From: a virus
DNA: 64,000 nt
Reading direction: 5' to 3' (one strand)
Virus record (IMG/VR): IMGVR_UViG_3300025687_000022
This document shows, one piece after another, positions 1,349 to 19,816 of the stretch. Under the pieces are notes generated by a model. It ran no database searches. It was not told the origin of the DNA and worked only from the letters and a program-made list of their open reading frames with translations. Position 1 is the stretch's first letter. Each line of letters starts with the position of its first letter. The translations under genes were made by a program, and so were the position numbers.

Positions 1349-1930
1349 TTACCAGAATCTACCGGGGACATTTGTACCAAAGTCTTTATGAGCCCTGCAA
1401 GCCCAATAACCGGGTTTTGTTTTATCTTTTTTCTGATCGCACTTGTGCCTTGCAGCAAAACTTTTACGAGCTTCTGGGTCGTTCCAGTTGCCTTTTAGAC
1501 CACCTTTTGCGTCACCATAAGTAACTTTCTTGACATTACCTGTTTTTGGATCGCGAACATAAACTTTATATTTCTTTCCTGAACCAGTATTTTTGGTTGG
1601 CTTGTTTAGTGGCGGGTCTTTTTTCTTGGACTCTTCTTCTAAAACTTCATCGTACATTGGAAAATCAAGCGGGACTCTTTCACCTTCAAATATCGCCCAC
1701 TCACCTAAATCGGTATGCTTGAGGGTATGAAGATCAATTAACTGAGGATTAATTTCTTTATTCTCGTACATCTTTCTTGCTTCGTGAATAACACGAAAAT
1801 AGTTATCAGACCCAATACGATAAATATTTCTTGAAAAAGGAATCTTATTTTCAAGATGGTAGTCTACCATTTCAATAGCTTCGGTTTCTTCTTTAATTAT
1901 TTGCTTTAATTTAGCTTCTGTTATTTTCAT
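1349..1930 (-). CDS. Conserved large-phage hypothetical protein (DUF6321-like C-terminus) with MKIT leader
   Basis: KKYKVYVRDPKTGNVKKVTYGD...RKSFAARHKC...PGYWAC motif; MKITEAKLKQIIKEE start. Confidence 0.6.
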   Translation of the reverse strand: MKITEAKLKQIIKEETEAIEMVDYHLENKIPFSRNIYRIGSDNYFRVIHEARKMYENKEINPQLIDLHTLKHTDLGEWAIFEGERVPLDFPMYDEVLEEESKKKDPPLNKPTKNTGSGKKYKVYVRDPKTGNVKKVTYGDAKGGLKGNWNDPEARKSFAARHKCDQKKDKTKPGYWACRAHKDFGTNVPGRFW

Positions 1931-2952
1931 GGTTGGTTTCCTTTGGATACGTTTAAAACTTCCATAAAATGTTCGTATGCTGTGCCGTAGTATTCAGAAG
2001 ATTGAAACAATCTTCGTAGTACTCGTGGCAGCGACTCACAGAAGGTGAGATCAAGGCTCGTCAGGTTCGTACAGCCCGCCAGACCGTCTACGTTCTCCAG
2101 CGACGTGCACCAGTAAGCGTCGAGGGTCGTCAGATTCGTACAGCCCGCCAGACCGTCTACGTTCTGCAGTGACCTACACCGGCTGAGGTCGAGGTCCGTC
2201 AGGTTCGTAAGCCCCTGGAGCCCGTCTACGTTCTGAAGCGACTTGCAATTGCTGAGGTCGAGACTCGTCAGGTTCGTAAACCCCTGGAGTGCATCTACGT
2301 TCTGAAGCGACTTGTTCCCGGTGAGGAAGAGGCTCGTCAAGTTCGTAAGCCCCTGGAGCCCGTCTACGTTCTGCAGCGACGAGCACCTTTCGAGGTTGAG
2401 GTCCGTCAGGTTCGTAAGCCCCTGGAGCCCATTTACGTTCTGCAGCGACGAGCACCATCCGAGGTCGAGGCTCGTCAGGCTCGTGCAGCCCTTTAGCCCG
2501 TCTACGTTCTCCAGCGAATAGCAATGGTTGATGTCGAGGCTCGTCAGGCTCGTAAGCCCCTGGAGTCCGTCCACATTACGCAGCGAATTGCAATAGCTGA
2601 GGTCTATTTTTGTTGTAACGTTTAGTTCACGTAAGCCTGACAAGAAATTAACATTTTCTTCTTCTATATCTGACTCTGCAAACTGATCAATTACTTCTAG
2701 CTTTTTTAAGATTTCGCTATTTCCTGCTGGATCGCTGGCTTTAATTACGTCTTTGTACAGTAAATAAACCTCTACTCCTTGTGCAAACTCCCAAGGATCA
2801 TTTGAAGATAGAAGTCTTATTATTTTTTGTGCCGGCGTAAGTTCTTCCTCTTCTTCATAATCATAATCATCATCATATTCGTCTTCTTCAATAAGAAGCT
2901 TAACAACTTCTTCTTTGATGATCTGATTCAATTTTGATTTAGTTATTTTCAT
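1927..2952 (-). CDS. Leucine-rich repeat protein (LRR-1, ~9 modules, cap type A)
   Basis: 23-aa repeats LTxLxLxxCxSLQNVDGLxGxTN; MKIT leader; acidic linker. Confidence 0.9.
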   Translation of the reverse strand: MKITKSKLNQIIKEEVVKLLIEEDEYDDDYDYEEEEELTPAQKIIRLLSSNDPWEFAQGVEVYLLYKDVIKASDPAGNSEILKKLEVIDQFAESDIEEENVNFLSGLRELNVTTKIDLSYCNSLRNVDGLQGLTSLTSLDINHCYSLENVDGLKGCTSLTSLDLGWCSSLQNVNGLQGLTNLTDLNLERCSSLQNVDGLQGLTNLTSLFLTGNKSLQNVDALQGFTNLTSLDLSNCKSLQNVDGLQGLTNLTDLDLSRCRSLQNVDGLAGCTNLTTLDAYWCTSLENVDGLAGCTNLTSLDLTFCESLPRVLRRLFQSSEYYGTAYEHFMEVLNVSKGNQP

Positions 2953-3806
2953 CCTTTTTTACCTGATTTTGATTTCTTGCCCCAATTTCCACGCTCTCCA
3001 CAAGCTGATGGTGTTGGTCTGCAAGAAGGATATTTAGATCTTTTTTCATCTCCAGACCTACCGCATGGAGAGCACTTCTTTTTGCCTGTCTTTTCGTCCT
3101 TTCTGCAAGTGTTGCAATCAACCCAGCCACCTTTCTTTCCAGGTGCTCCTTTACGACCAAACCAATCGCGAAGAGAAGTTTCAGATGATGGCTTCTTAGT
3201 TAGTTTTCTTTTTTTTTCATTTAGCTCTTTTTGTATTTCTTCGTCAATAAGAGAACTAAGAAAATCTGCCTGAGAGCCATGCTTTTTAACAGAATCTTCA
3301 AGTTGACCAATAATTTCTTTTATTTTCTTAATATCTTGGTCGGACATTTCTTTGCTTTCAAAAACTTTATTTATTTCTTCATCAATTATTTGATCGAGAT
3401 GCTCAAAATCAATAGATTCTTTTTTGGAATTGCCCCAATTTTTAGCACCTACTTTACGACATTTAACAAGTGCCCCTGAAGCGTATGCAGATGGCCAAAC
3501 TTTATAACGAGATTTAACTTTATGATAACAAGCATCTTTCTTTCCTGAAGAATTCTTTTTCTTTTTTCTATCAGCTACCTTGCGAGCACGTTTCTTGCCC
3601 TTTTGTTGCTTTTTCTTTTTCTCGTTTATTTCTTCTTCCTCAAGAGTGGCGGTGCCTCCTGCTTTTTTATAAAGTTGAGATGCTTCTTCTTTTGAGATCA
3701 TGCCAAGTCGAAGCATTTTTTTAATAGCTTCTCTTTGCCTTTGTTTTCTTTCCTCGTTAGAACGAGTAATTTCTTCTTCGTTAATATCACCATATAAATC
3801 TTGCAT
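2949..3806 (-). CDS. Conserved phage hypothetical protein (basic, Cys-containing)
   Basis: DACYHKVKSRYKVWPSAYASGALVKCRK and LRDWFG...GGWVDC...KYPSCRP motifs I recognise from large marine phages. Confidence 0.6.
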   Translation of the reverse strand: MQDLYGDINEEEITRSNEERKQRQREAIKKMLRLGMISKEEASQLYKKAGGTATLEEEEINEKKKKQQKGKKRARKVADRKKKKNSSGKKDACYHKVKSRYKVWPSAYASGALVKCRKVGAKNWGNSKKESIDFEHLDQIIDEEINKVFESKEMSDQDIKKIKEIIGQLEDSVKKHGSQADFLSSLIDEEIQKELNEKKRKLTKKPSSETSLRDWFGRKGAPGKKGGWVDCNTCRKDEKTGKKKCSPCGRSGDEKRSKYPSCRPTPSACGERGNWGKKSKSGKKG

Positions 3807-3862
3807 AGTTTTGGTATCCTTGCTTTAAATAGTTAGCAGTCAAAGGACAATACAAAAAAATA

Positions 3863-4795
3863 TTATCCTTTTAAAACTTCCATAAACTGCTCGTATGCTG
3901 TGCCACTGCTATCAGATTCAAACCTTTCTTGTAATTCTGGTGGTAGCGATGAGCACTCTATGAGGGAGAGGCTCGTCAGGTTCGTGCAGCCCTTCAACCC
4001 ATCTACGTTCTGCAGCGAATTGCAGAAGCCGAGGTTGAGGTACATCAGGTTCGTGCATTCCTTTAGCCCGTCTACGTTCTCCAGCGACTCGCAGAAGCTG
4101 AGGTAGAGGTACATCAGGTTCGTGCATTCCTTTAGCCCGTCCACGTTCTGCAGCGACTTGCACCTGTTGAGGTTGAGCCAATTCAAGTTCGTACAGCCCG
4201 CCAGCCCGTCTACGTTCTGCAGCAACTCGCATTTGTAGAGGTTGAGGTCCGTCAGGTTCGTGAGTCCTTGGAGCCCGTCTACGTTCTCCAGCGACGTGCA
4301 CCCGTTGAGTTTGAGGCTCGTCAGGTTCTTGCAAAACCTTAAAAAATCAACGTTTGTGATAAAATCATTTGCAATATTAAGTCTCTCAATCTGATCAAGC
4401 ATATTTTTAACACGATCAGATTTTTCAGCAAAATAGTTTAAAATCATCCCAAGTTGTTGCGGAACAATTTCTTGCGGAAGATCAAATCCTTGTGTAGTTA
4501 TTGAATTACTTTTTGAGTCGAAAACGAAATGACTTGCAATTGTATCGATGAGTTGTTGATATTCGAGTTGTGAAAATCCAGGTTGTGGATCTTCAAGGGC
4601 GTCAAGAATTGAAAGACCTTGCTGTACATTAGCAGAATCATCTGAAATTAGAAGCTTGATTATTTTTTGTGCGTAAGTAAGTTCTTCTTCTTCGTAATCA
4701 TAATCATCATAATCATCATATTCGTCTTGTTCAACAAGAAGCTTAACAACTTCTTCTTTGATTATTTGCTTTAGTTTAGTTTTGGTGATTTTCAT
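3863..4795 (-). CDS. LRR protein (LRR-2, ~6 modules, cap type B)
   Basis: 23-aa LRR modules; MKIT leader. Confidence 0.9.
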   Translation of the reverse strand: MKITKTKLKQIIKEEVVKLLVEQDEYDDYDDYDYEEEELTYAQKIIKLLISDDSANVQQGLSILDALEDPQPGFSQLEYQQLIDTIASHFVFDSKSNSITTQGFDLPQEIVPQQLGMILNYFAEKSDRVKNMLDQIERLNIANDFITNVDFLRFCKNLTSLKLNGCTSLENVDGLQGLTNLTDLNLYKCELLQNVDGLAGCTNLNWLNLNRCKSLQNVDGLKECTNLMYLYLSFCESLENVDGLKECTNLMYLNLGFCNSLQNVDGLKGCTNLTSLSLIECSSLPPELQERFESDSSGTAYEQFMEVLKG

Positions 4796-5742
4796 GGTTG
4801 GTTTCCTTTAGATGCATTTAAAGCTTTCATAAACTGTTCGTATGCTGTGCCGCTGCTATCAGTTCCAAAATATTTTTGCAATTTTATTGGCAGCGACTTG
4901 CACCCTTCGAGGCTGAGGCTTATCAGATTCGTGCAGTCCTCCAGACCGTCTACGTTCTGCAACGACTCGCACCTGTAGAGGTCGAGTTCCGTCAGGTTCG
5001 TGCATTCCTTTAACCCGTCTACGTTCTCCAGCGACTCGCACCCTTCGAGGGTGAGGTGCGTCAGGTTCGTGCATTCCTTTAGCCCGTCTACGTTCTGCAG
5101 CGACTTGCACCCTTGGAGGTCGAGGGTCGTCAGACTCGCACAGCCCCCCAGCCCATCTACGTTCTGCAGCTTATCGCACCCGTTGAGATAGAGGGTCGTC
5201 AGGTTCGAGCAGCCCTTCAGCGCGTCTACGTTCTCCAGCGACTTACATTCACTGAGGTCGAGCCACGTCAGGTTCGTAAGCCCCTCCAGCCCGTCTACGT
5301 TCTCCAGCGAGTTGCAGAAGCCGAGGTCGAGCCTCCACAGGTTCGTAAGCCCCTGGAGTCCGTCCACGTTCTGCAGTGATTTGCACCCTTCGAGGATGAT
5401 TTTTTCTGTAACGTTTAGAACACTTAAGCCCGACAAGAAATTAACGTTTTGTATGTCTGGCGACCTTGCAAACTGATCAATCACTCTTAATTTTTCTAAG
5501 ATCTGATTATTTCCTGCTGGATCGCTGGCTTCAATATCGTCTTTGAAAAGTAAATAAACCTCTAATCCTTGTGCAAAAGTGCCAGGATCAGGTGAAGATA
5601 GAAGTCTGATTATTTTTTGTGCGTAAGTAAGTTCTTCTTCCTCTTCTTCGTAATCATAATCATCATATTCGTCTTGTTCAATAAGAAGCTTAACTACTTC
5701 TTCTTTGATGATTTGCTTTAAAGTTGCTTTAGTGATTTTCAT
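4792..5742 (-). CDS. LRR protein (LRR-3, ~8 modules, cap type A)
   Basis: 23-aa LRR modules; ATGA overlaps with both neighbours. Confidence 0.9.
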   Translation of the reverse strand: MKITKATLKQIIKEEVVKLLIEQDEYDDYDYEEEEEELTYAQKIIRLLSSPDPGTFAQGLEVYLLFKDDIEASDPAGNNQILEKLRVIDQFARSPDIQNVNFLSGLSVLNVTEKIILEGCKSLQNVDGLQGLTNLWRLDLGFCNSLENVDGLEGLTNLTWLDLSECKSLENVDALKGCSNLTTLYLNGCDKLQNVDGLGGCASLTTLDLQGCKSLQNVDGLKECTNLTHLTLEGCESLENVDGLKECTNLTELDLYRCESLQNVDGLEDCTNLISLSLEGCKSLPIKLQKYFGTDSSGTAYEQFMKALNASKGNQP

Positions 5743-6638
5743 GGTTGGTTTCCTTTGGATGCATTTAAAGCTTTCATAAACTGTTCGTATGCTGTGCCGA
5801 TGTGCTCAAAAGAATGAAAAGATCTTTGCAGTGCTCGCGGCAGCGACTCGCACCCGTTGAGGAAGAGGCTCGTCAGATTCGTGCAGCCCTTCAGCGCGTC
5901 TACGTTCTGCAGCGACGTGCACCCGCTAAGGTCGAGGCTTTTCAGGTTCGTAAGCCCCTGGAGCCCGCCTACGTTCTGCAGCGACTCGCATCTGTTGAGG
6001 TAGAGGGACGCCAGATTCGTACAGCCCTCCAGCCCGTCTATGTTCTGTAGCGACGTGCACCAGCTGAGGTCGAGTTCCGTCAGGTTCGTGCATTCTTTTA
6101 GCCCGTCTACGTTCTGCAGCGACTCGCACCCGCTGAGGTGGAGCCAATCCAGATTCATAAGCCCCTGGAGCCCGTCTACGTTCTGCAGCGAATCGCACCT
6201 GCTGAGGTCGAGTTCCGTCAGGTTCGTGAGCCTTTGGGGCTCGTCTACGTTCTGGAACCCGTCTACGTTCTTCAGCGACTCGCACCCGCTGAGGTCTATT
6301 TCTTCTGTGACGTTTAGATCACTTAAGACTGACAAGGAACCAACGTCTGGTATATCTGACCCTGCAAACTGATCAATCACTCTTAGCTTTTCTAAGATTT
6401 GGCTATTTTCTGTTTGAGCGTTAGCTTCAATATCGTCTTTGACCAAAGAATAAATCTCTACTCCTTGTGCAAAAGTGTCAGGATCTTTTGAAGATAGAAA
6501 TCTGATTATTTTTTGTGCCGGCGTAAGTTCTTCTTCTTCGTAATCATAATCATCATAATCATATTCGTCTTGCTCAACAAGAAGCTTAACAACTTCTTCT
6601 TTGATTATTTGCTTTAAAGTTGATTTGGTTATTTTCAT
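5739..6638 (-). CDS. LRR protein (LRR-4, ~7 modules, cap type A)
   Basis: 23-aa LRR modules. Confidence 0.9.
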   Translation of the reverse strand: MKITKSTLKQIIKEEVVKLLVEQDEYDYDDYDYEEEELTPAQKIIRFLSSKDPDTFAQGVEIYSLVKDDIEANAQTENSQILEKLRVIDQFAGSDIPDVGSLSVLSDLNVTEEIDLSGCESLKNVDGFQNVDEPQRLTNLTELDLSRCDSLQNVDGLQGLMNLDWLHLSGCESLQNVDGLKECTNLTELDLSWCTSLQNIDGLEGCTNLASLYLNRCESLQNVGGLQGLTNLKSLDLSGCTSLQNVDALKGCTNLTSLFLNGCESLPRALQRSFHSFEHIGTAYEQFMKALNASKGNQP

Positions 6639-7687
6639 AATGAGTTCCTTTTAGATGCTTTTAGGGCTTCCATAAACTTCTCGTGTGCTGTGCCACTGCT
6701 ATCAGTTGCAAAATATTCTTGCAATTCTGGTGGCAGCGACGAACACCAGCTGAGTTCGAGAATCGTGAGCTTTGTAAGCCCCTGGAGTGCATCTACGTTC
6801 TGCAGCGACTCGCAACCGGCGAGGTTCAGGGTCGTCAGGTTCGTAAGCCCTTGGAGCCCGTCTACGTTCTGCAGCGACGAGCACATGTTGAGGTAGAGGG
6901 TCGTCAGGTTCGTAAGCCCCTGGAGCCCATCCACGTTCTGCAGCGACTTGCACCCTTGGAGGTCGAGGGTCGTCAGGTTCGTAAGCCCCTGGAGCCCATT
7001 TATGTTCTGCAGTGACTTGCACCCTCTGAGGTAGAGGGTCGCCAGGTTCATAAGCCCCTGGAGTGAATCTACGTTCTGCAGCGACGTGCACCCGCTGAGG
7101 TCGAGGGTCGTCAGGTTCGTGCAGCCCTCCAGCCCGTCTACGTTCTGCAGCGACGTGCACTCGTAGAGGTTGAGGGTCGTCAGGTTCGTGCAGCCCTTCA
7201 GCCCATTTACGTTCTGCAGCGACTCGCACCAGCCGAGGTTGAGGCGCGTCAGGTTCGTGCAAAACCTTAAAAAATCAACGTTTGTGATAAAATCATTAAG
7301 ATAGAACACCAGATTCTCAATCTGAGCAAGCATATCTTTAAAATGATCAGATTTTTCAGCAAAATAGTTTAAAATCATCTCAAGGGTTTCATTTGGGATC
7401 TTAAATCTTCGAATAGTTATTCTGCCGCCTGATCTAAAATCGATATAACTTGCAATTGTATCGATGAGTTGTTGATCTTCAAGAGCGTCAAGAATTGTAA
7501 GACCTTGTTCTACATTAGCAGAATCATCTGAAGATAGAAGCTTGATTATTTTTTGTGCCGGTGTAAGTTCTTCTTCTTCTTCTTCATAATCATCATCATA
7601 ATAATCATCATATTCGTCTTGCTCAACAAGAAGCTTAACAACTTCTTCTTTGATTATTTGCTTTAACTTAGTTTTAGTGATTTTCAT
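6635..7687 (-). CDS. LRR protein (LRR-5, ~8 modules, cap type B)
   Basis: 23-aa LRR modules. Confidence 0.9.
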   Translation of the reverse strand: MKITKTKLKQIIKEEVVKLLVEQDEYDDYYDDDYEEEEEELTPAQKIIKLLSSDDSANVEQGLTILDALEDQQLIDTIASYIDFRSGGRITIRRFKIPNETLEMILNYFAEKSDHFKDMLAQIENLVFYLNDFITNVDFLRFCTNLTRLNLGWCESLQNVNGLKGCTNLTTLNLYECTSLQNVDGLEGCTNLTTLDLSGCTSLQNVDSLQGLMNLATLYLRGCKSLQNINGLQGLTNLTTLDLQGCKSLQNVDGLQGLTNLTTLYLNMCSSLQNVDGLQGLTNLTTLNLAGCESLQNVDALQGLTKLTILELSWCSSLPPELQEYFATDSSGTAHEKFMEALKASKRNSL

Positions 7688-8853
7688 GGTTGGTTTCCTT
7701 TGGATGCGTTCAAAGCTTTCATAAACTTCTCATGCGCTGTGCTACTGTTATCAGATTCAAACAATTTTTGTAATCCTAATGGCAGCGACCTGCACCTGTA
7801 GAGGTCGAGGCTTTTCAGGTTCGTGCAGCCCTTCAGCCCGTCTACGTTCTGCAGTGACCTGCAATAGCGGAGGTCGAGGCTCGTCAGGTTCGTGCAGCCC
7901 TCCAGACCGTCTACGTTCTGCAGAGACTCGCAGAAGCGGAGGTCGAGGGTCGTCAGGTTCGTGCAGCCCTTCAGCCCGTCTACGTTTTCCAGCGAACTGC
8001 AATAGCGGAGGTCGAGGCTCGTCAGGTTCGTGCATTCCTTTAGCCCGTCTACGTTCTCCAGCGACTTGCACTCGTAGAGGGTGAGGGTCGTCAGGTTCGT
8101 GCATTCCTTTAACCCGTCTACGTTCTGCAGCGACCTGCACCAGCTGAGGTCGAGGGTCGTCAGATTCGTGCAGCCCTCCAGCACATCTACGTTCTCCAGC
8201 GACGTGCACCTGTTGAGGTCGAGTTTCGTCAGGTTCGGTAGGGACTTCAAGACACCGAGCGCCCCAAGAGACTGCAGCGCCGTGAACGTGCCTCCGCCGA
8301 GGTAGAGGGTCGTCAGGTTCGTAAGCCCCTGGAGCCCGTCTACGTTCTGCAGCTTCTCACACCAGTAGAGGTCGAGTTCCGTCAGGTTCGTACAGCCCGC
8401 CAACCCGTTTACGTTCTCCAGCGAATCGCACTCGTAGAGGCGCAGGATCGCCAGACTCGCACAGCCCTTCAGCCCGTCTATGTTCTGCAGTGACTTGCAA
8501 GAGCTAAGGTCTATTTGCTCTGTAATATTTATCTCTTTTAAACCTGACAAGAAGTCCACGTTTTGTATATCTGACAATGCAAACTGATCAATTACTTGTA
8601 GCTTTGCTATAATCTCATCATTTTCTGTTGGAGCGTTAACTTCAATTTCGTCTTTGACCAATGAATAAATCTCTACTCCTTGTGCAAAAGTGTCAGGATC
8701 ATTTGAAGATAGAAATCTTATTATTTTTTGTGCGTAAGTAAGTTCTTCCTCATCATCATAATCATCATAATCATCATATTCGTCTTGTTCAATAAGAAGC
8801 TTAACAACTTCTTCTTTGATTATTTGCTTTAACTTAGTTTTAGTGATTTTCAT
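7684..8853 (-). CDS. LRR protein (LRR-6, ~11 modules, cap type A)
   Basis: 23-aa LRR modules plus one atypical longer module (GGGTFTALQSLGALGVLKSLPN). Confidence 0.9.
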   Translation of the reverse strand: MKITKTKLKQIIKEEVVKLLIEQDEYDDYDDYDDEEELTYAQKIIRFLSSNDPDTFAQGVEIYSLVKDEIEVNAPTENDEIIAKLQVIDQFALSDIQNVDFLSGLKEINITEQIDLSSCKSLQNIDGLKGCASLAILRLYECDSLENVNGLAGCTNLTELDLYWCEKLQNVDGLQGLTNLTTLYLGGGTFTALQSLGALGVLKSLPNLTKLDLNRCTSLENVDVLEGCTNLTTLDLSWCRSLQNVDGLKECTNLTTLTLYECKSLENVDGLKECTNLTSLDLRYCSSLENVDGLKGCTNLTTLDLRFCESLQNVDGLEGCTNLTSLDLRYCRSLQNVDGLKGCTNLKSLDLYRCRSLPLGLQKLFESDNSSTAHEKFMKALNASKGNQP

Positions 8854-9905
8854 GGTTGGTTTCCTTGCATAATAGCATTTCTTAGATCATTATTTATTGT
8901 TTTACACAGATACCTGCCTTTTAATCCAAGTCTTTGCCAATTTTGAAGCCAATAAGACTCTAACTCTTGAGGAATATATCCGCATCTTTCGCTAGCACCA
9001 GTTGTAGGATTAATTTCTTTATTTCCGTTTGTTGAATCAAGAATGCGAAGATACATATCATAAATATTTGCTTTTTCTTGTTCGGAAGTATTAGCTTCTA
9101 TCCAATCATAAAGGCTGTTGAAGTTGAGCAAATCTTCACGCGAAATAGGAGCCCCATAAATTTTTTGAAGCAGCTGTAGAGCCTCTGAAGGGCTGTGAGC
9201 GACCTTTTGACCTGTGCTTTTATCAAATACGCCCTCTACGTGGTTAAACGAATAGTTTTTGGCTCCAAACATAGACAAAACAAGCTGTGTTCTATGTAAG
9301 CCTTTTAACATTGGTTGTGTTTCAGAGGGAAAATCAGAAAAATAAGAAAAAGTAAGCCAATTTTTGTTTCCAAGCATCCAATCCATTTGAACACCGATAT
9401 CTTGTTGCTCTCCAGCTTCATTATGTTGAGGAAAAAGAGTGAACATGTTGCCAGGACGCACTTTTTTTAAATCACTAATGATTAAAGTAGAGTTCTCGCC
9501 AATATATTTGGCAAGTTCGTATAAAAATGCTCTTAACTCAACTTGTTCTGGCGTTGCTGTTCTTGCACGCTTAACAAATCTTTGATAAGTTGCTTTCCAG
9601 TCGTCTGGGTTTAAATTCCAGCTTTGTAGAGCCTCATCAGTAACCTTTTTATCTGGAAAAAGATCAGAAACATCAACAGCAAGGTCAATATCGCCTGATT
9701 TTGCTTTTTTGCCGACTGATCCAAGGGGCTCAAAAGTTTGAAATAAACTAGAATGCTGCGGAAACAGCCTTGATAGCTCTTCATAATACTTTTCAAGTGT
9801 TGGCTGAATATAACCAAGAGGAATTGGACCTACAGATTGGTCCTGAAAAACATTTCCACCTTCTGTAATCAAAAATCTCCTCCAATTTTCAAATAACTTT
9901 TGCAT
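8850..9905 (-). CDS. Pol-beta superfamily nucleotidyltransferase-like protein
   Basis: LGSVGKK..SGDIDLAVD (GS...DxD) motif; MQKLFENWRRFLITE leader. Confidence 0.65.
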   Translation of the reverse strand: MQKLFENWRRFLITEGGNVFQDQSVGPIPLGYIQPTLEKYYEELSRLFPQHSSLFQTFEPLGSVGKKAKSGDIDLAVDVSDLFPDKKVTDEALQSWNLNPDDWKATYQRFVKRARTATPEQVELRAFLYELAKYIGENSTLIISDLKKVRPGNMFTLFPQHNEAGEQQDIGVQMDWMLGNKNWLTFSYFSDFPSETQPMLKGLHRTQLVLSMFGAKNYSFNHVEGVFDKSTGQKVAHSPSEALQLLQKIYGAPISREDLLNFNSLYDWIEANTSEQEKANIYDMYLRILDSTNGNKEINPTTGASERCGYIPQELESYWLQNWQRLGLKGRYLCKTINNDLRNAIMQGNQP

Positions 9906-9947
9906 TTCTATAATAATCCTAAAATTAAATCAACCAAAGCTTCTACA

Positions 9948-10502
9948 TCATCTGGATTGGGCTTTATGTTCAATATTTTCTTGTAAATATTCATCATAAT
10001 CAGCAGAATCTTCAAAAGCTTCTGTTGCCGTCTTGATATTTTCTGGTTTTAAAGCTATTTTCCACTCTTTTCCATCTCTGCGAGCACCATACATAGCAGA
10101 ACTACCAGGAATTTCTGGATCTGAATAAAAAACAATCCCTGGTGGTATTTGCATATCACTTACAGACACTATTAGTAGATCGTACTCTTGTGGATCGCCA
10201 GAAGATATACCCCCTATGATCGCATCAATTTGTCCAGACCGCGAAAATGCTTGACCAAGTGCTTCGTTAAAGTCTTTAAAAAAATAAATACGATATTCTA
10301 TCTCGCCTTTTTCATTTCGATAGAATTTATCTTTATCTTTAGGCTTATTATAAGATTTTAAAGTGTCAGCACGCACTTTTGTAACGTGATAAATCGGGGA
10401 TCCGACCATATCTATATTACCAAGCCGTTCTCCAAAATTTGAGAACGGCTCTTCAACGCCTTCTTTTAAGAAAATTCTCCAAGAATCATAAATTTTTTTC
10501 AT
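9948..10502 (-). CDS. Leader-bearing hypothetical protein (possibly ART-like: IYHVT...RIYF)
   Basis: Probable start MKKIYDSWRIFLKE; weak YH-x-T / IYF motif. Confidence 0.4.
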   Translation of the reverse strand: MKKIYDSWRIFLKEGVEEPFSNFGERLGNIDMVGSPIYHVTKVRADTLKSYNKPKDKDKFYRNEKGEIEYRIYFFKDFNEALGQAFSRSGQIDAIIGGISSGDPQEYDLLIVSVSDMQIPPGIVFYSDPEIPGSSAMYGARRDGKEWKIALKPENIKTATEAFEDSADYDEYLQENIEHKAQSR

Positions 10503-10968: not shown

Positions 10969-10969
10969 T

Positions 10970-11713
10970 TTATCTGCAAACTCTCATTTTTAAATCTGTC
11001 ATTTGGCAAAAATCAACCAAAGCGTTGTCTAAATCAAGAACTTGTATTGGTTGAACCCAAATAATGTCCCCAACGACCTGTAAATTTGGTTGCCATTCGA
11101 CATCGACACCCCAAAGAATACCAACTAAGTCGCCATTATCGTCATAGACGACAGATCCAGACGATCCAAACCAGCCGTAACTATGCATAATTATCTGAAT
11201 TCCGGTATCCCCCGTCGTTTCATAGCCAGCAACACGACCTCTAAAGGTCATAATTTCGTGAGTTGAGGGAAAACCAGAGTAAGTTATTTCCTCTCCTACG
11301 TTCATTTGCTTTTTGCGTGGAGAATATCTAATCGGTTTTGCATTTTGCAAGTCAGCAACAGGATAAACAATAGCGATATCATAAACTGGATCTGCATAAA
11401 TAAGCACCCCAGGCATAGCTTCATTACCATGAGTGATCAAAAATAGTTTTCCGATCTCATTTCCAGTTACATGCTTTGCTGTTAAAATAAAATTTGAGCC
11501 TTTATACCTGATCAGGGAACCAGATCCGTGACCTTGCCCAATACTTAAGACTCTAACCGCAGCATTTCGCACTTGCATTTCAACTTTAGACGAAATTTCT
11601 GATACAGGAAAGACCCCTTCAATTAGATTTTCGTCAGAAAATGGCAACTGAAGGGGCTCAGAGTGAGCCTGAGTTCCAAAAAGCAAGCAAAAAGCAAAAA
11701 GTAATTTTTTCAT
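10970..11713 (-). CDS. Trypsin-like serine protease with signal peptide
   Basis: LTAKHV, DIAI and GSSGS catalytic triad motifs; MKKLLFAFCLL N-terminus. Confidence 0.85.
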   Translation of the reverse strand: MKKLLFAFCLLFGTQAHSEPLQLPFSDENLIEGVFPVSEISSKVEMQVRNAAVRVLSIGQGHGSGSLIRYKGSNFILTAKHVTGNEIGKLFLITHGNEAMPGVLIYADPVYDIAIVYPVADLQNAKPIRYSPRKKQMNVGEEITYSGFPSTHEIMTFRGRVAGYETTGDTGIQIIMHSYGWFGSSGSVVYDDNGDLVGILWGVDVEWQPNLQVVGDIIWVQPIQVLDLDNALVDFCQMTDLKMRVCR

Positions 11714-11739
11714 TTATTGTTTCTCCCACAATAAATAGA

Positions 11740-12210
11740 TTACAGGGCTCTTATTTGCGTTTCCATCCAAGCATTTGCCTGAGAATGTGTATCAAAAAGA
11801 GGGGAAAATCCAGATAGATACCTTAGAGTTGCCCCCTCTACCGCAGCCCATTGCCACTTCCAGCTACTCTCAGAACAAAATACAAGAGCAGAAGACACGG
11901 AAGACATTTTAGATGCTTTAATATTCATAGGCGAAGCATGCATTTGAAGAATCTGGTTGCACTTCTTAAGGTAAACAGGGTCTTGCTGCGGTGTATCCTG
12001 CTTATTTTCTTTAATTTCTTCTCTTTCTTGCGGAAGATCTGCGCGGATAATGGTATATTTTGAACGACGCTGTTTTGTAGTAAACTCTTGATAAACGTTA
12101 AGCTTAAAAAAAGTTTCTGCGTTATTATCATCTTCGATCTCAAAAGAAGTCATTGGTGACTTTGCGCGCTGCCCAGACTTAAAAATCTTGTATACGTTCC
12201 ATGTACTCAT
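11740..12210 (-). CDS. Hypothetical protein
   Basis: 156-aa ORF with GGAG RBS upstream. Confidence 0.55.
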   Translation of the reverse strand: MSTWNVYKIFKSGQRAKSPMTSFEIEDDNNAETFFKLNVYQEFTTKQRRSKYTIIRADLPQEREEIKENKQDTPQQDPVYLKKCNQILQMHASPMNIKASKMSSVSSALVFCSESSWKWQWAAVEGATLRYLSGFSPLFDTHSQANAWMETQIRAL

Positions 12211-12742
12211 TTTGCACTCCTTCGATTGATTGCCATTTTAATATACCAAGAATGATCGAAGTCTGCAAGTGTTTTTCTTCAATAAATCGATAAAAAGCAA
12301 AATTTGTTCGTTTTTCTAAGGGACCATACCAGATAATCTCCCAAAAAACATGATCTTCAAATTTCATGCTTTCTTTATGTTCGCATGACAAAAGAAGACC
12401 AATATTACCTCCGATTATATCAATAATAATATCTCCGTTTGACAGCTTTATTTTTTTTGCTTCTTTTTCTAGCGCTTCTCTTTCCAATTTTTTACAATAA
12501 TAACCATTGATTAGTAGAAATAGAATTGTAATATTTTTCAATGGAAATAAAATCTGTTTGTTCTTGGGCTGGCAGTTTTAAAGGAAGCGGTTGATTATCT
12601 CCAACAACAGTAGAAGGAATTAGTTTTTGATATTCTGTTCTTTCGTGGTTGTTGATTAACAATAAGTTGAAAAAGTAAAATAAAATACTCATTGTTATAA
12701 ATGTTGCTATAAATGTTCTCATTTTATATTTTCCTGCCTTGG

Positions 12743-14668: not shown

Positions 14669-14699
14669 AAATTTATCCCTTTTTACAGTAGATAGTATC

Positions 14700-15464
14700 T
14701 TATCTTTTTGAAAGAGCTTTTTTTAGTCTTTCATTAATAACATTACGATGGTGCCAACGTGATTTTTTGGTTATGTTTTTCTTTAAGATTTTAGATACTC
14801 TTTCGTTCATTTCTTTGATAAGATCTGCGTGTTCAACCTCATCTAATTCTTCAGTTTCTTCAGTTTCTTCAGAATTATCAGGTTCAAATGGATATTCTGA
14901 GTCAAAGAAAGGAATAACAAATTTACGAGACAACCTTTGAACCGGAGGTCCAGCGCTGGGACCACCTTTTGGATAAGCCATAGTATACATTCTGGAACCC
15001 CCAGGCTCTTGTGAATAATAATCAGATCTAAAATCAGCTTTATCGCCAGTTAAAACAACATCTCTTCTCTGTATTGTTTCGCCGGTATCACAAAGAATAT
15101 ATTCGTATATCATTTTACCGTCTTGCATAGAACCCCAAATAACAGCTTCTTGTCCGAATTCTTTGCCAAATTGTAAAATCTCATCACGAGCAACATTTGG
15201 AATAATAAAAGATCTTTCTTCATTTCCAAATTTACCACGGATTCGCCTGTAGCCAATCTTCATACTTTTTAGCTTGTCTTCAAACTGCCTTAGAAGTGCG
15301 TCGTTCTCTTGTTTTGATAATTCTTCGGCATTTGGGTTTTCTGAGGTCATGATACCGACAGATTGTATGGTTGGTCTTTGCCCTGTTATAATTCTAATAA
15401 TGTCTCTAAATTGAGATTCTTCATTTAATAAAAACTTTTTCCATTCTGTTATTATTTTTTTCAC
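14700..15464 (-). CDS. Possible SAM lyase (T3 SAMase-like / DUF3293-like) with leader
   Basis: IMTSENP...N...L...GY....G.FG.EERSFII...FGQEAVIW pattern; MKKIITEWKKFLLNEE leader. Confidence 0.5.
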   Translation of the reverse strand: MKKIITEWKKFLLNEESQFRDIIRIITGQRPTIQSVGIMTSENPNAEELSKQENDALLRQFEDKLKSMKIGYRRIRGKFGNEERSFIIPNVARDEILQFGKEFGQEAVIWGSMQDGKMIYEYILCDTGETIQRRDVVLTGDKADFRSDYYSQEPGGSRMYTMAYPKGGPSAGPPVQRLSRKFVIPFFDSEYPFEPDNSEETEETEELDEVEHADLIKEMNERVSKILKKNITKKSRWHHRNVINERLKKALSKR

Positions 15465-15548
15465 ATCATGCTCCTTTTAAAATAATATAACTTTATTATA
15501 TCGCTGTGTCAATAAAATTTACTTTTCTATAAGTTCTTGAATTGAGCC

Positions 15549-16442
15549 TTAGTTTCCTTTGGATGCGTTTAAAGCTTTCATAAACTGTTCGTGTGCTGTG
15601 TCGTATTCATCAGATTTAAACAAATCTTGTAATCCTAATGGCAGTGACGCGCACCTGCGGAGGTCGAGGGTCGTCAGGTTCGTGCATTCCTTCAGTACGT
15701 CTACGTTCTGCAGCGACTTGCACCAGTTGAGCTTGAGCGTCTCCAGGTTTGTGCATTCCTTTAACCCGTCTACGTTCTGCAGCGACTCGCACCAGTAGAG
15801 GTAGAGGTACGTCAGGTTCGTACAGCCCTCCAACCCGTCTACGTTCTGCAGCGAATCGCACTCCCAGAGGTTGAGGGTCGTCAGGTTCGTACAGCCCTTC
15901 AGTCCGTCTACGTTCTGCAGCGACTCGCACCCCCAGAGTTCGAGGCTCGTCAGGTTCGTGCAAAACTTTAAAAAATCAACGTTTGTCATAAATTTATCTT
16001 TAATATTAAGACTCTCAATCTTAGCAAGCATATATTGAACACGAGAAGATTTTTCAGCAAAATAGTTTAAAATCATCCAAAATGTTACATTTGAGACTTC
16101 AAAACCTTGAATAGTTATTAAACTACTTTTTGAGTCGAAAGTGAAATGACTTGCAATTGTATTGATGAGTTGTTGATATTCGAGTTTGAGCCGTTGATAT
16201 TCGAGTTGTGAAACTCCAGGTTGTGGATTTTCAAGGGCGTCAAGAATTCCAAGACCTAGATTTACATATTCAGGATCAGGTGAAGATAGAAATCTGATTA
16301 TTTTTTGTGCTTCAGTAAGTTCTTCTTCTTCTTCTTCTTCTTCTTCTTCTTCTTCATCATAATCATCATATTCGTCTTGTTCAATAAGAAGCTTAACAAC
16401 TTCTTCTTTGATGATTTGCTTTTTAGTTTTAGTTATTTTCAT
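15549..16442 (-). CDS. LRR protein (LRR-7, ~5 modules, hybrid A/B cap, expanded poly-Glu)
   Basis: LRR modules; (TCT)n tract at ~16320-16353; leader lacks one Leu. Confidence 0.9.
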   Translation of the reverse strand: MKITKTKKQIIKEEVVKLLIEQDEYDDYDEEEEEEEEEEEELTEAQKIIRFLSSPDPEYVNLGLGILDALENPQPGVSQLEYQRLKLEYQQLINTIASHFTFDSKSSLITIQGFEVSNVTFWMILNYFAEKSSRVQYMLAKIESLNIKDKFMTNVDFLKFCTNLTSLELWGCESLQNVDGLKGCTNLTTLNLWECDSLQNVDGLEGCTNLTYLYLYWCESLQNVDGLKECTNLETLKLNWCKSLQNVDVLKECTNLTTLDLRRCASLPLGLQDLFKSDEYDTAHEQFMKALNASKGN

Positions 16443-17158
16443 GGTTGGCTTCTCTTAGATGCGTTCAAAGCTTCCATAAACTTCTCGTATGCTGTGCCAC
16501 TGCTATCAGTTTTAAACAATTGTTGTAATTTTATTGGCAGCGACCTGCACAGCCAGAGGCTGAGGCTCGTCAGGCTCGTAAGCCCCTGGAGCCCGTCTAC
16601 GTTCTGCAGCGAATAGCACCCGGCGAGGCTGAGGCTCGTCAGGCTCGTAAGCCCCTGGAGCCCGTCTACGTTCTGCAGCGACTTGCAGAAGCTGAGGTAG
16701 AGTCTCGTCAGGCTCGTGCATTCCTTTATCCCGTCTACGTTCTGCAGCGACTCGCAATCGCTGAGGTCGAGGGTCGTCAGGCTTGTAAGCCCCTGGAGCC
16801 CGTCTACGTTCTGCAGCGACGAGCACCAGCGGAGAACTATTTTTTCTGTAATATTTAGCTCACTTAAGCCTGACAAGAAGTCAACATCTTGTATTTTTGA
16901 CTCTGCAAACTGATCAATTACTTTTAGCTTTTCTAAGATCTGATCATTTTCTGTTGGAGCATTAACTTCAATATCTTCTTTCAATTGGGTATAAAAAGAT
17001 AATGCTTGTGCAAAGTAACCAGGATCATTGCCGCTTAAACGATCTAGAATTGTTAACGCATATTGTTTATATTCATTTTCTTGATCTTCATTTTCTGTTA
17101 AAAGTTTGGTTACTTCTTCTTTGATTATTTGCTTTAGTTTAGTTTTGGTTATTTTCAT
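16439..17158 (-). CDS. LRR protein (LRR-8, ~5 modules, divergent A cap)
   Basis: LRR modules; MKIT leader. Confidence 0.9.
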   Translation of the reverse strand: MKITKTKLKQIIKEEVTKLLTENEDQENEYKQYALTILDRLSGNDPGYFAQALSFYTQLKEDIEVNAPTENDQILEKLKVIDQFAESKIQDVDFLSGLSELNITEKIVLRWCSSLQNVDGLQGLTSLTTLDLSDCESLQNVDGIKECTSLTRLYLSFCKSLQNVDGLQGLTSLTSLSLAGCYSLQNVDGLQGLTSLTSLSLWLCRSLPIKLQQLFKTDSSGTAYEKFMEALNASKRSQP

Positions 17159-17161
17159 AAT

Positions 17162-17902
17162 TTATCTATCCCATACAGAATGATTTAGCCATCTATTTTT
17201 TATATCCTCAGCTTCATCTGATGTAACTATTCCGCTTTGGACTTGGTTATGTAAATAGTTTTGTATTAGCTCTTCGATACTTTTTTGTGATTTTGATGCC
17301 TCTGCTCTAAATCCTATTAAAAATGCAGGAGTCTCGCAAGCGCTTGTAAAATACTCATACATTGAATTATATTCTTTTGTTGGCAGATAAGTGCAATTTG
17401 GTCGCTGAAAAGGTCTACCATCTTGAGTAAAATGATGAAGCTCGTGCGCCACAACATTAAATAGCTCATTTTCAATTGAAGCGATGTTGGAACCAGATAA
17501 GAAAAGTCCCGGTCTAATAGTAAAATCAACAATAATCTTGCCACCATCCTCAGAATAGTCTGAAGCACCATCTATATTCCAGCCAACATGATTGCTGTCA
17601 AAATTGGTTGGAGTAAAAATAACTTCTACTTCAAATGCAGGTATAGCATCCTCATAGTTATCACTCCAGACTTCAACATCAACAGGATAATCCCAAGAAT
17701 AAAAGAAAGTTTTTTTATGTTTTGTTTTCTTTCCAGTTGCTGGTAGTATTTTTAAAATATCTTCAACGATTTTTTCTACTGTTTCTTTATAATAAAAATC
17801 AGCATCTTGTAATCTAAACTCTGGAAACTCCATATCAACCTCCAATAAGTTTAATATTTCTTCTTTGATTATTTGCTTTAAATTTGATTTGGTTATTTTC
17901 AT
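17162..17902 (-). CDS. MKIT-leader protein with HExxH zinc-metalloprotease-like motif
   Basis: VAHELHHFTQ followed by YFTSACETPAF. Confidence 0.55.
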   Translation of the reverse strand: MKITKSNLKQIIKEEILNLLEVDMEFPEFRLQDADFYYKETVEKIVEDILKILPATGKKTKHKKTFFYSWDYPVDVEVWSDNYEDAIPAFEVEVIFTPTNFDSNHVGWNIDGASDYSEDGGKIIVDFTIRPGLFLSGSNIASIENELFNVVAHELHHFTQDGRPFQRPNCTYLPTKEYNSMYEYFTSACETPAFLIGFRAEASKSQKSIEELIQNYLHNQVQSGIVTSDEAEDIKNRWLNHSVWDR

Positions 17903-18876
17903 GGTTGGCTTGTCTTAGATGCATTTAAAGCTTCCATAAACTTCTCGTGTGCTGTACCGCTGCTATCAGTTCCAAAATATTTTTGCAATTTTATTGGCAG
18001 CGACTTGCACTCTTCGAGGCTGAGGCTTATCAGATTCGTGCAGCCCTCCAGCCCGTCTACGTTCTGCAGCGACTCGCACTCGTAGAGGTCGAGGTTCGCC
18101 AGGTTAGTGCAACCCTCCAGCCCGTCTACGTTCTGCAGTGACTCGCACCCGAAGAGGCTGAGGCTCGTCAGGTTCGTGCAGCCCTTCAGCCCGTCTACGT
18201 TCACCAGCGACCTGCAATAGCTGAGGTCGAGGCTCGTCAGGTTTGTGCATTCCTTTAGCCCGTCTACGTTCTGTAGTGACTCACACCCGTTGAGGTCGAG
18301 GGTCGTCAGGTTCGTGCATTCCTTTAGCACGTCTACGTTCTTCAGCGATGAGCACCCGGTGAGGTAGAGGGTCGTCAGGTTTGTGCAGCCCTCCAGTCCA
18401 TCCACGTTCTGCAGCGACCCGCAATAGCTGAGGTCAAGCTTCGTCAGGCTCGTAAACCTCTGGAGTGCATCTACGTTCTCCGGCGATTTGAGTCCCTTCA
18501 GCCCGTCTACGTTCTTCAGTGATCTGCACCCTTTGAGGATGATTTTTTGTGTAACGTTTAGTTCACGTAAGCCTGACAAGAAATTAACATTTTTTTCTTT
18601 TATATCTGAATCTGCAAACTGATCAATTACTTCTAGCTTTTCTAAGATTTGGCTATTTTCTGTTGGAGCGTTAGCTTCAATATCGTCTTTGACCAAAGAA
18701 TAAATCTCTACTCCTTGTGCAAAAGTGTCAGGATCAGGTGAAGATAGAAATCTGATTATTTTTTGTGCCGGCGTAAGTTCTTCCTCTTCATAATCATCAT
18801 ATTCGTCTTGCTCAACAAGAAGCTTAACAACTTCTTCTTTGATTATTTGCTTTAAATCTGATTTAGTTATTTTCAT
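17899..18876 (-). CDS. LRR protein (LRR-9, ~8 modules, cap type A)
   Basis: LRR modules. Confidence 0.9.
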   Translation of the reverse strand: MKITKSDLKQIIKEEVVKLLVEQDEYDDYEEEELTPAQKIIRFLSSPDPDTFAQGVEIYSLVKDDIEANAPTENSQILEKLEVIDQFADSDIKEKNVNFLSGLRELNVTQKIILKGCRSLKNVDGLKGLKSPENVDALQRFTSLTKLDLSYCGSLQNVDGLEGCTNLTTLYLTGCSSLKNVDVLKECTNLTTLDLNGCESLQNVDGLKECTNLTSLDLSYCRSLVNVDGLKGCTNLTSLSLFGCESLQNVDGLEGCTNLANLDLYECESLQNVDGLEGCTNLISLSLEECKSLPIKLQKYFGTDSSGTAHEKFMEALNASKTSQP

Positions 18877-19640
18877 GGTCGGCTTCCTTTGGATGCATTT
18901 AAAGCTTTCATAAACTTCTCGTGTGCTGTGCCTCTGTTATCAGTTTTAAACCATCGTTGTAATTCTGATGGCAGCGAATAGCACATGCTGAGGTCGAGGG
19001 TCGTCAGGTTCGTGCAGCCCTCCAGCCCGTCTATGTTCTTCAGCGACGTGCACCAGCTGAGGTCGAGGCTTTTCAGGTTCGTGCAGCCCTTCAGTCCGTC
19101 TACGTTCTGCAGCGACTCGCACGCGCCGAGTTCAAGGTACGTCAGATTCGTGAGTCCCTGGAGCCCGTCTACGTTCTCCAGGGACGTGCACCAGTTGAGG
19201 TTGAGTCCCCTCAGGTTCATGCAAAAACTTAAAAAATCAACGTTTGTCATAAATTCATCTGTAATATCAAGATTCTCAATCTGAGCAAGCATATTTTTAA
19301 CATGAACAGATTTTTTAGCAAAATAATTTAAAATCATCCCAAGTTCTTGCGGAAGATCAAATCCTTGTGTAGTTATTGAAGCACTTGTTGGGTCGAAATC
19401 GATATAACTTGCAATTGTATCGATGAGTTGTTGATCTCCAAGGTCGTCAAGAATTCCAAGACCTAGCACTACATTAGCAGAATCATCTGAAGTTAGAAGC
19501 TTGATTATTTTTTGTGCGTAAGTAAGCTCTTCTTCTTCGTAATCATAATCATCATAATCATCATATTCGTCTTGCTCAACAAGAAGCTTAACAACTTCTT
19601 CTTTAATTATTTGCTTTAAAGTTGATTTGGTTATTTTCAT
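18873..19640 (-). CDS. LRR protein (LRR-10, ~4 modules, cap type B)
   Basis: LRR modules. Confidence 0.9.
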   Translation of the reverse strand: MKITKSTLKQIIKEEVVKLLVEQDEYDDYDDYDYEEEELTYAQKIIKLLTSDDSANVVLGLGILDDLGDQQLIDTIASYIDFDPTSASITTQGFDLPQELGMILNYFAKKSVHVKNMLAQIENLDITDEFMTNVDFLSFCMNLRGLNLNWCTSLENVDGLQGLTNLTYLELGACESLQNVDGLKGCTNLKSLDLSWCTSLKNIDGLEGCTNLTTLDLSMCYSLPSELQRWFKTDNRGTAHEKFMKALNASKGSRP

Positions 19641-19667
19641 AATAATTTTCCTTATTATAACACAACC

Positions 19668-19676
19668 TAAATAGTA
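19668..19676 (-). promoter_or_regulatory. Candidate late-promoter motif ACTATTTA
   Basis: CTATTTA-like motif ~20-35 bp upstream of starts at 3806, 11713, 19640, 51639 and 60487 (variant at 14668). Confidence 0.45.
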
Positions 19677-19785
19677 AAACAGGCACTAAAAAACACAAAT
19701 TTTGTTTTGTATTTTTTAGCACCATCCCAATACTCGTATTATTTTTTTCCGAGTCTTATAAAGCCTTTTAAACAATCGAGAGCAC

Positions 19786-19813: not shown

Positions 19814-19816
19814 AAA

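Follow-up and report, generated by a model that had tools for sequence, protein, structure and literature searches.

Ten mosaic leucine-rich repeat genes in a T4-like estuarine phage: a possible repertoire of packaged binding proteins

Introduction

What does a phage gain from ten versions of a single repeat protein, and where would these proteins act? The question is raised by two arrays of leucine-rich repeat (LRR) genes in the IMG/VR virus record IMGVR_UViG_3300025687_000022, of which we analysed a stretch of 64,000 nucleotides, hereafter the window. The phage is T4-like and estuarine, and the two arrays, both on the minus strand, hold ten complete open reading frames (ORFs), LRR1 to LRR10, of 239–389 aa each. 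A first-pass annotation of this DNA had described them as a phage repertoire resembling the variable lymphocyte receptors (VLRs) of lampreys, assembled from about 70 shuffled modules with a hypervariable binding face. The phage origin of the genes and their standing as a true paralogous family of binders are borne out here, and we are confident that the family is real, that it evolves under diversifying selection and that it turns over in the population. We also lean, with considerably more reserve, towards reading the locus as a repertoire of ten or more LRR binding proteins, encoded in the germline of the phage, that would be packaged into the head and injected.

Ten proteins with one architecture

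Each of the ten proteins scores above the curated cut-off of the Pfam family LRR_4 (48–100 bits against a cut-off of 27, with E-values from 1e-12 to 4e-29), and all follow the shared layout that had been proposed for them. They begin with a leader, MKITK..LKQIIKEE, whose form across the LRR genes is MKITK..LKQIIKEEVVKLL[IV]E, followed by an acidic linker of Asp, Glu and Tyr in nine genes (the linker of LRR8 is divergent), by one of two N-terminal caps (cap A in six genes, cap B in four; Table 1), by the repeat modules and by a tail, GTA[YH]E[QKH]FM, that closes all ten. A motif scan for NVDGL-type anchors at exact 23-residue spacing retrieved 60 canonical modules, three to nine per gene, and the earlier count of about 70 holds if the one further degenerate, cap-proximal module of each gene is added. 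The canonical unit is LQNVDGLxGCTNLTxLxLxxCxS, in which Leu is invariant or nearly so at module positions 13, 16, 18 and 1 and Cys at position 21, the pattern of an LRR repeat.

In the AlphaFold2 model of LRR3 (mean predicted local distance difference test score, 90.2; predicted template modelling score, 0.85), the leader is a helix (residues 5–24) and the acidic linker is disordered (residues 26–35). A helical cap, eight short strands at the 23-residue spacing of an LRR solenoid and a closing C-terminal helix complete the model. The strands fall on module positions 15–17, so that positions 15, 17, 19 and 20 correspond to the x residues of LxxLxLxx, a mapping taken from the secondary-structure register of the model and not from coordinates. 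In known LRR structures these residues line the concave face. The predicted fold is an internalin-like solenoid: Listeria internalins were the top Foldseek matches of the LRR3 model (E ~1e-11), ahead of LRR domains of Roco and FBXL2. Both caps lack Cys clusters and are helical. For cap B, the Atlas structure search returned weak HEAT-like helical repeat neighbours (template modelling score ~0.5).

Selection on the variable positions

Across the 60 modules, positions 14, 15, 17, 19, 20 and 22 hold 9–13 residue types each and have ratios of nonsynonymous to synonymous differences per site (pN/pS) of 1.4–2.5, against 0–0.4 at the Leu, Asn and Cys positions of the framework. Pooled, the variable positions reach a pN/pS of 2.02 (pS 0.25) and the module framework 0.36 (pS 0.32). 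The variation is therefore focused, as the first-pass annotation had it, on the positions expected for a concave face. Its companion claim, that the framework is fixed even at synonymous sites, stands for some codons, which are near-invariant (CTG at positions 1 and 13, CTC at 16 and 18), but not for the framework as a whole, whose pooled pS is not below that of the caps or leader. Concerted evolution of modules was considered as the main force and rejected: framework pS within module subtypes is 0.26, not below the caps.

Outside the modules, the leader is under strong purifying selection (pN/pS 0.16, pS 0.38), and cap A has a pN/pS of 0.64 (pS 0.29). In cap B, carried by LRR2, LRR5, LRR7 and LRR10, protein changes outpace silent sites (pN/pS 1.33, pS 0.13), and this cap might also contact a ligand or partner.

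The same contrast is found between strains. In variant modules that differ by 1–9 nt from their counterpart in the window, the variable positions show 36 replacements and no silent change, and the framework 17 replacements and 23 silent changes (Fisher p = 5e-9).

Identity and variation across samples

Eight other samples yielded contigs that are 100% identical to the window wherever they overlap it; one of these records may be the window's own source, and the remainder are independent. Among them, one spans all 13.8 kb of the six-gene cluster LRR1–LRR6 and another runs from LRR4 to LRR1, while two further cluster-bearing contigs are 99.6–99.9% identical to the window. The longest exact repeat within positions 1900–19700 is 73 bp, to be compared with the k = 141 given in contig names. 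Repeat misassembly of the window, a concern raised together with the original description, is ruled out by these matches and by the shortness of the repeats. The broader suspicion that the array or its variants are artefacts of metagenomic repeat assembly draws on the many contigs that terminate within LRR genes, and on one sample that holds both a collapsed variant (L019) and a six-gene contig (L014). It is scarcely credible, given the same two observations and the deletions described below, which are in frame and exact multiples of 69 bp.

Fifteen distinct contigs are 97–99.9% identical to the window, and their summed differences have a density of 8.7 per kb within LRR genes, about six times the 1.4 per kb of the remaining sequence. 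In several contigs all differences are confined to LRR genes: L017 has 44 in 1.0 kb of LRR sequence and none in 2.5 kb of flank, and L003 has 25 and none in 8.3 kb of flank. These mapped contigs also substantiate the predicted population variation in module number, module content and gene number. LRR1 occurs with one module fewer (318 aa, L019), with two fewer (295 aa, L017), with a different module lost (L022) and as a patchwork allele of identical and replaced modules beside a g285 gene without differences (L018). LRR10 carries an exact 69-bp deletion in L003 (232 aa), the linker of LRR7 differs in length by strain (proteins of 297, 298 and 302 aa), and a near-identical LRR9 protein, P0001, is found on 17 contigs.

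Module content changes in patches. The last module of LRR8 is replaced in L007, where 8 of 8 changed bases lie within 21-mers present elsewhere in the window, and in both L012 and L018 a 5-nt patch turns MY into TS in module 2.3 of LRR2, with every changed base in a 21-mer found in other modules. Some multi-base patches thus match 21-mers of other modules, as expected from gene conversion, and others are new.

Gene number varies as well. In L012, LRR6 and LRR5 are fused through their shared 5' ends, leaving the LRR5 body on the LRR6 5' end and one gene lost. An extra LRR gene with unrelated modules stands upstream of LRR6 in L014, at the site of the window's g351, and on a 113-kb contig (L019) a single LRR1-type gene replaces the six LRR genes and g285 between g351 and g193. 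A separate contig, L038, holds four tandem LRR genes of the phage family with two linker types, together with a leader-tagged non-LRR gene. The species-wide pool of LRR binders exceeds the ten genes described here.

Mosaicism and the origin of diversity

That the paralogs are mosaics is confirmed by relationships that differ from segment to segment. The leader DNA of LRR4, which has cap A, is 98% identical to that of LRR10, which has cap B; the leaders of the neighbours LRR5 (cap B) and LRR6 (cap A) are 97% identical; and the tails relate LRR3 to LRR9 and LRR6 to LRR7. The hybrid cap reported for LRR7 is real: 41 nt match the A-cap gene LRR9 exactly (16270/18728), after which LRR7 turns into cap B. 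LRR4 and LRR9 have a 70-nt exact block in common, and the DNA blocks said to recur between genes are exactly repeated over 44 nt (5090/6933) and 54 nt (4850/17957). Irregular units in LRR4, LRR9 and LRR6 (Table 1) are read as probable scars of slippage or unequal exchange. The nearest neighbour of a module lies in another gene in 54 of the 60 cases. A run-length test, in which the longest identical stretches exceeded those of shuffled columns (p < 0.01) in 6 of the 66 pairs, gives modest support that leader conservation inflates; the case for exchange is made from segment incongruence and strain variants rather than from this test.

The mechanism suggested by the comparison with VLRs did not hold up. 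A VLR gene is an incomplete germline gene completed from flanking cassettes and has Cys-knot caps (LRRNT and LRRCT), and neither trait was found: all ten ORFs are complete in the germline and identical across the eight samples, the caps are helical and lack Cys clusters, and the modules are individually diverged instead of being reused cassettes. No two of the 60 are identical, nearest neighbours being alike at 55–65 of 69 nt. Nor do the modules look like products of a diversity-generating retroelement, as there is no invariant template copy among the 60 and the variable codons differ at all bases, although no reverse transcriptase search was made.

The variation of a few codons in a constant scaffold is what a system of hypermutation or programmed assembly, of the retroelement or VLR type, would produce in each infection cycle or lineage. 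Such a system nevertheless merits next to no credence here: the sequences are identical across eight samples, changes are not limited to adenines, and ten complete ORFs with 60 different modules leave no pair of template and variable repeat. The absence of identical modules and the identity across samples argue against programmed assembly or hypermutation and for slow germline turnover by ordinary recombination. From sequence, the diversity looks like the outcome of unequal homologous recombination, gene conversion and point substitution under diversifying selection.

A GC-rich repeat core between phage-native ends

The LRR modules differ sharply in composition from the rest of their own genes. 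GC content at third codon positions (GC3) is 0.83 in the modules, 0.26 in the leaders, 0.21 in linker plus cap and 0.21–0.34 in other genes near the arrays. Sliding-window profiles of LRR1, LRR3, LRR5, LRR7, LRR8 and LRR10 rise from ~0.2 to ~0.9 at the first full repeat and drop back at the SLP that ends the last one, with sharp boundaries in six of six.

The nearest cellular relatives are ~50% identical over the repeats and include tandem, membrane-anchored LRR genes of a Chthoniobacter genome (GC 0.70). The modules of that genome have a GC3 of 0.86 and the Leu codons of the phage modules (CTG at 1 and 13, CTC at 16 and 18), and the phage and bacterial consensus modules agree at 47 of 69 nt. 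Within 6 kb (L039, 450–6831), the Chthoniobacter genome carries no fewer than six LRR genes of this repeat type, so that the bacterial family is a tandem multigene family too. Judged by composition and codon use, each phage LRR gene is a chimera, with a GC-rich repeat core from a high-GC bacterial LRR family grafted between phage-native ends. Recent transfer, biased gene conversion or selection are possible reasons for the persistence of the high GC3.

The closest cultured relative of the phage is the 160-kb Flavobacterium myovirus immuto (37–42% identity for g351 and g193, 39% for GroEL), which has no LRR genes of this type. The cultured-phage collection returned only weak LRR matches on Listeria-phage records and hence no cultured phage there with this family, a scan of viral contigs with LRR3 found no relative, and full-text literature searches found no report of a phage-encoded LRR multigene family.

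Leaders shared with unrelated genes and the head module

The leader is not restricted to LRR proteins. In its class A form it heads 12 ORFs of the window, namely the ten LRR genes, g193 and g246. A second class, M..L.[EDS].W..F[LI]..E, heads g378, g351 and g189, and a looser form of it the DUF3293 gene (Table 1). Both classes are thus short N-terminal sequences common to otherwise unrelated proteins, as in proteins targeted to T4-type capsids, and their ends fit, as sequence, the hydrophobic-x-Glu sites of prohead proteases (IKE, L[IV]E, ITE, LKE, ISE and LNE). In immuto, the g351 orthologue (37.5% identity) starts with MGGNVF, at precisely the point where the window protein resumes after MQKLFENWRRFLITE (...LITE), and that of g193 (42% identity) starts past the leader position, which holds a stop codon in immuto. 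The leaders are therefore portable additions.

Two side observations concern immuto. The body of g246 aligns with the C-terminal portion of an immuto gene of 908 aa that is annotated as NadR (L027, around 18230–18640), and a domain fused in one phage is thus a separate tagged protein in the other. Three unrelated immuto ORFs (L029–L037; 81524, 102879 and 113187) start with leader-A-like helices, MKLDLLKKLIKEAV, MKKSQLREIIRKEL and MKKSQLRQIIKEAL, and immuto may, on this likeness, use a similar tag.

A search with the immuto prohead protease retrieved a mass of immuto-like sequences but not the window's phage. The head module of this phage was reached with a DNA pattern back-translated from a scaffold C-terminus, which matched three contigs, followed by exact-protein look-up. 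The three contigs carry the ribosomal protein bS21, a scaffold and a Gp23-family capsid protein (Pfam E = 2.6e-72). On one contig of 86,866 bp, ERZ27275016:k141_150092, the head module (L043) lies at one end and LRR1, g193 and g378 at the other (L022), which places Peptidase_S77, Portal_T4, scaffold and Gp23 in the same genome as the LRR genes. The gene order is terminase, T4-type portal, five small genes, Peptidase_S77 protease, a 558-aa gene, a 139-aa gene, bS21, two small genes, scaffold and capsid.

Both leader classes recur in this operon. The small proteins that flank the protease begin MKITKSRLKEIILEE and MKLIMENWDKFLIQE; of the proteins beside it, that of 101 aa has a class A N-terminus (MKITKSRLKEIILEE) and that of 152 aa a class B one (MSKHMKLIMENWDKFLIQE). 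The N-terminus of the 558-aa protein is class B-like (...VDKWRSFLQE) and that of the 139-aa protein class A-like (MKKNELKSLIKPLVKECIQEVLIEE). In T4, prohead core proteins are encoded at this position. Weaker likenesses are seen in the scaffold, which starts with MSSLLKEAIIDAK here and with MSNKDLLKQAIAEAK in immuto, both loosely like leader A, and in the capsid propeptide, which contains ALLKKWERTGLLEG, loosely like leader B, as well as KELLRE followed by SSS, a plausible cleavage site.

Two further features of the operon stand apart from the leaders. The bS21 gene (Pfam Ribosomal_S21; L043, 9343–9588) is located between prohead protease and scaffold, and the 558-aa protein (L043, 7254–8930) ends RMKILAGIK, the scaffold (10569–11591) RMRRLAGIK. 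These similar ends may be a shared C-terminal address, distinct from the N-terminal leaders.

Proposed role

In the reading towards which we lean, the 15–22-residue N-terminal helix would be a capsid-targeting propeptide that docks the LRR protein to the scaffolding core of the prohead. The T4-type prohead protease would then remove it after Glu (IIKE/E or LL[IV]E), and the mature protein would be packaged with the DNA, injected and free to bind host proteins in the next host, most likely defence or takeover proteins.

The main rival would do without packaging altogether: the LRR proteins would be expressed in the ordinary way and act only within the infected cell, with the leader helix serving oligomerisation, localisation, translation efficiency or as a homology block. 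This rival gains from the 5' leader DNA, which supplies the longest exact repeats between genes (60–73 bp) and contains the breakpoints of the LRR6/LRR5 fusion and of the cluster collapse; packaging itself, moreover, is putative. Against the rival stand a leader that is conserved as protein while its synonymous sites vary, the presence of both leader classes on small proteins beside the prohead protease in the head operon, and the immuto orthologues of g351 and g193 that do without leaders. We regard action without packaging as unlikely, though as the alternative to be taken most seriously.

The proteins might also be sought on the outside of the virion, as head decoration or fibre-associated adhesins that widen adsorption, their variation tracking receptors. 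Such exposure is at odds with the one or two free Cys that each module has at its ladder position, as cytosolic LRR types do, and the Cys ladder and the absence of signal peptides fit cytosolic action. The closest solved folds are nonetheless internalins, which are surface adhesins; immuto orthologues of neighbouring genes sit just downstream of tail-fibre genes; and host-range proteins are typically hot spots of strain variation. An exposed role is improbable all the same, since the LRR proteins lack a tail-fibre or baseplate attachment domain, the leader is also found on enzymes and other unrelated proteins, and no structural genes adjoin the arrays in the window.

Several points weigh against the packaged repertoire. 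Packaging and cleavage are predictions from gene sequence. Ten proteins of ~35 kDa, nine of them with acidic linkers, would be an unusual head cargo. Leader A looks like the scaffold N-terminus and leader B like the LLxKW..LLEG motif of the capsid propeptide, but these are short helical motifs that could match by chance. The per-site pN/pS values are pairwise counts over recombining repeats and not estimates under a tree-based model, alignment across module indels accounts for part of the excess of strain differences in LRR genes, and no close bacterial donor was found, the best cellular matches being only ~50% identical.

A bolder version of packaging and injection would have strain-specific, 'antibody-like' LRR binders, each neutralising a different host target and renewed by recombination of modules and genes, and would make the two portable leaders a general addressing scheme by which any cargo could enter the head. 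We put it forward tentatively and hold it to be doubtful as a whole.

Locus layout and surrounding genes

LRR1 (1927–2952), with g285 adjoining, is followed by LRR2–LRR6 (3863–8853), and the second array, LRR7–LRR10 (15549–19640), has g246 inserted (Table 1). Most adjoining genes of the arrays overlap by four bases (ATGA-type junctions). The motif TATAATAA precedes LRR10 and the DUF3293 gene, and it stands 12 nt ahead of the first tRNA cluster. Its 10 copies in the window, where structural genes for comparison are absent, are too few and too ambiguous for a promoter class.

Table 1. Positions of the LRR genes, leader-tagged genes and other features in the window
Feature	Coordinates	Strand	Length	Description
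LRR1	1927..2952	-	341 aa	Cap A; 8 canonical + 1 cap-proximal module; ORF; LRR_4 1.2e-24
LRR2	3863..4795	-	310 aa	Cap B; 5 canonical modules
LRR3	4792..5742	-	316 aa	Cap A; 7 canonical modules; protein used for modelling
LRR4	5739..6638	-	299 aa	Cap A; 6 canonical modules and a 6-residue partial duplication
LRR5	6635..7687	-	350 aa	Cap B; 7 canonical modules
LRR6	7684..8853	-	389 aa	Cap A; 9 canonical modules and one irregular 28-residue unit
LRR7	15549..16442	-	297 aa	Hybrid cap with an A-like start and a B body; 4 canonical modules
LRR8	16439..17158	-	239 aa	Divergent cap A; shorter divergent linker in place of the D/E/Y stretch; 4 canonical modules
LRR9	17899..18876	-	325 aa	Cap A; 7 canonical modules and a 12-residue partial duplication
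LRR10	18873..19640	-	255 aa	Cap B; 3 canonical modules; opens its array
g378	201..1337	-		Non-LRR; class B leader MKLLFENWRQFISEE
g193	1349..1930	-		Non-LRR; class A leader MKITEAKLKQIIKEE
g285	2949..3806	-		Basic protein without leader, between LRR1 and LRR2
g351	8850..9905	-		Non-LRR; class B leader MQKLFENWRRFLITE
g189	9948..10502	-		Non-LRR; class B leader MKKIYDSWRIFLKEG
Trypsin_2 gene	10970..11713	-		Trypsin-like serine protease (Pfam Trypsin_2)
DUF3293 gene	14700..15464	-		Class B-like leader MKKIITEWKKFLLNEE
g246	17162..17902	-		Non-LRR; class A leader; HELHH motif
Intergenic region	19641..19816	-		Ahead of LRR10: after thyX a hairpin and then a T-run, followed by TATAATAA 13 nt upstream of the LRR10 start
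CobS-like AAA gene	31820..32884			GC3 near 0.54
VWA/metallopeptidase gene	33873..35099			GC3 near 0.54
tRNA genes	41190..46881	-		Eight, including two tRNA-Leu(CAA) and a tRNA-Ile with anticodon TAT

Long alternative-frame ORFs run through the repeats (6702–7262, 7757–8209 and similar, minus strand), for example one of 186 aa rich in Pro, Arg, Glu and Ala. They are a by-product of the periodic GC-rich sequence and were taken for genes by gene callers on contig L012. The Trypsin_2 gene stands among leader-tagged genes, adjoining a NUDIX hydrolase, and its product has an apparent classical signal peptide, MKKLLFAFCLLFGTQAHS. Elsewhere the window encodes ThyX (from the translation, with Pfam Thy1 in contig gene tables), GroEL, a GMP-reductase-like enzyme and a CobS/CobT-like pair. 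A second compositional island extends over 24000–36000 (GC 0.45–0.48, compared with ~0.38 elsewhere), with few ORFs above 100 aa at 24000–30000.

Comparison with known systems

T4-family prohead proteases cleave after Glu, and N-terminal capsid-targeting sequences of 10–20 residues load unrelated proteins into the head (PMC5694885, PMC3012670). The internal proteins of T-even phages are varied and change rapidly (PMC5694885, PMC3012670); among them is IPI*, an injected protein that inhibits a host restriction enzyme (PMC3012670). The phage studied here resembles T4 in that a short N-terminal putative propeptide ending in Glu stands on unrelated proteins, as in IPI, IPII, IPIII and Alt; in that a T4-type prohead protease, a scaffold and a Gp23 capsid protein are encoded in the same genome; and in that the cargo differs between close strains, as at the T-even internal-protein locus. 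It differs in its cargo, a ten-member LRR family with a variable binding face, in having two leader classes of other sequence and a long acidic linker, and in that packaging and cleavage are so far putative. In the giant phage SPN3US, the diverged paralogs gp53 and gp54 have identical 15-residue N-terminal propeptides with protease motifs and are packaged and ejected (PMC5694885); they are unrelated to the LRR proteins, belong to a different phage group and are not repeat proteins.

Listeria internalins, the best structural matches, likewise have a helical N-cap, short LRRs and a concave binding face and form a multigene family. Their repeats, however, have 22 residues and an Asn ladder, those of the phage proteins 23 and a Cys ladder; internalins also carry signal peptides, which the phage proteins lack, and wall anchors. 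The tandem LRR genes of Verrucomicrobiota (Chthoniobacter, L039) share the 23-residue unit LQNVD[GA]LxGLxxLxxLxLxxCxx, the high GC3, the Leu codons at positions 1, 13, 16 and 18 and the tandem order. With a transmembrane N-terminus, another C-terminus and ~50% identity, they are a related family and not the donor. The composition break makes the phage genes a clear case of a bacterial repeat core grafted by a phage onto its own delivery and capping parts.

If our reading is true, one repeat scaffold giving at least ten binders, different only at the binding face and replaced from strain to strain, would be a different design from the known injected anti-defence proteins of T-even phages, which are single small proteins of diverse folds. 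It would also parallel the use of LRRs by plants and jawless fish, but on the attacker's side. Possible uses are as a natural library of compact cytosolic binders, as two short candidate head-loading tags that can be tested in the Flavobacterium phage immuto, and as a marker locus for phage–host arms races in estuarine metagenomes.

Lamprey VLRs are, like the phage proteins, LRR-only binders whose variable concave face is built from modules. They are assembled somatically from cassette libraries and have Cys-knot caps, unlike the phage genes, which are complete in the germline, have helical caps and are identical across samples. The clusters of nucleotide-binding LRR (NLR) resistance genes of plants are closer in their evolution, with tandem paralogs, unequal crossing-over and gene conversion, an excess of replacements at the x positions of xxLxLxx and copy-number variation (e.g. 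PMC6771003), although they encode eukaryotic immune receptors with NB-ARC and the phage genes are viral and without a signalling domain. The locus thus resembles T-even internal proteins in its delivery logic, plant resistance-gene clusters in its evolutionary mode and internalins in its fold, and it is a member only of the LRR superfamily.

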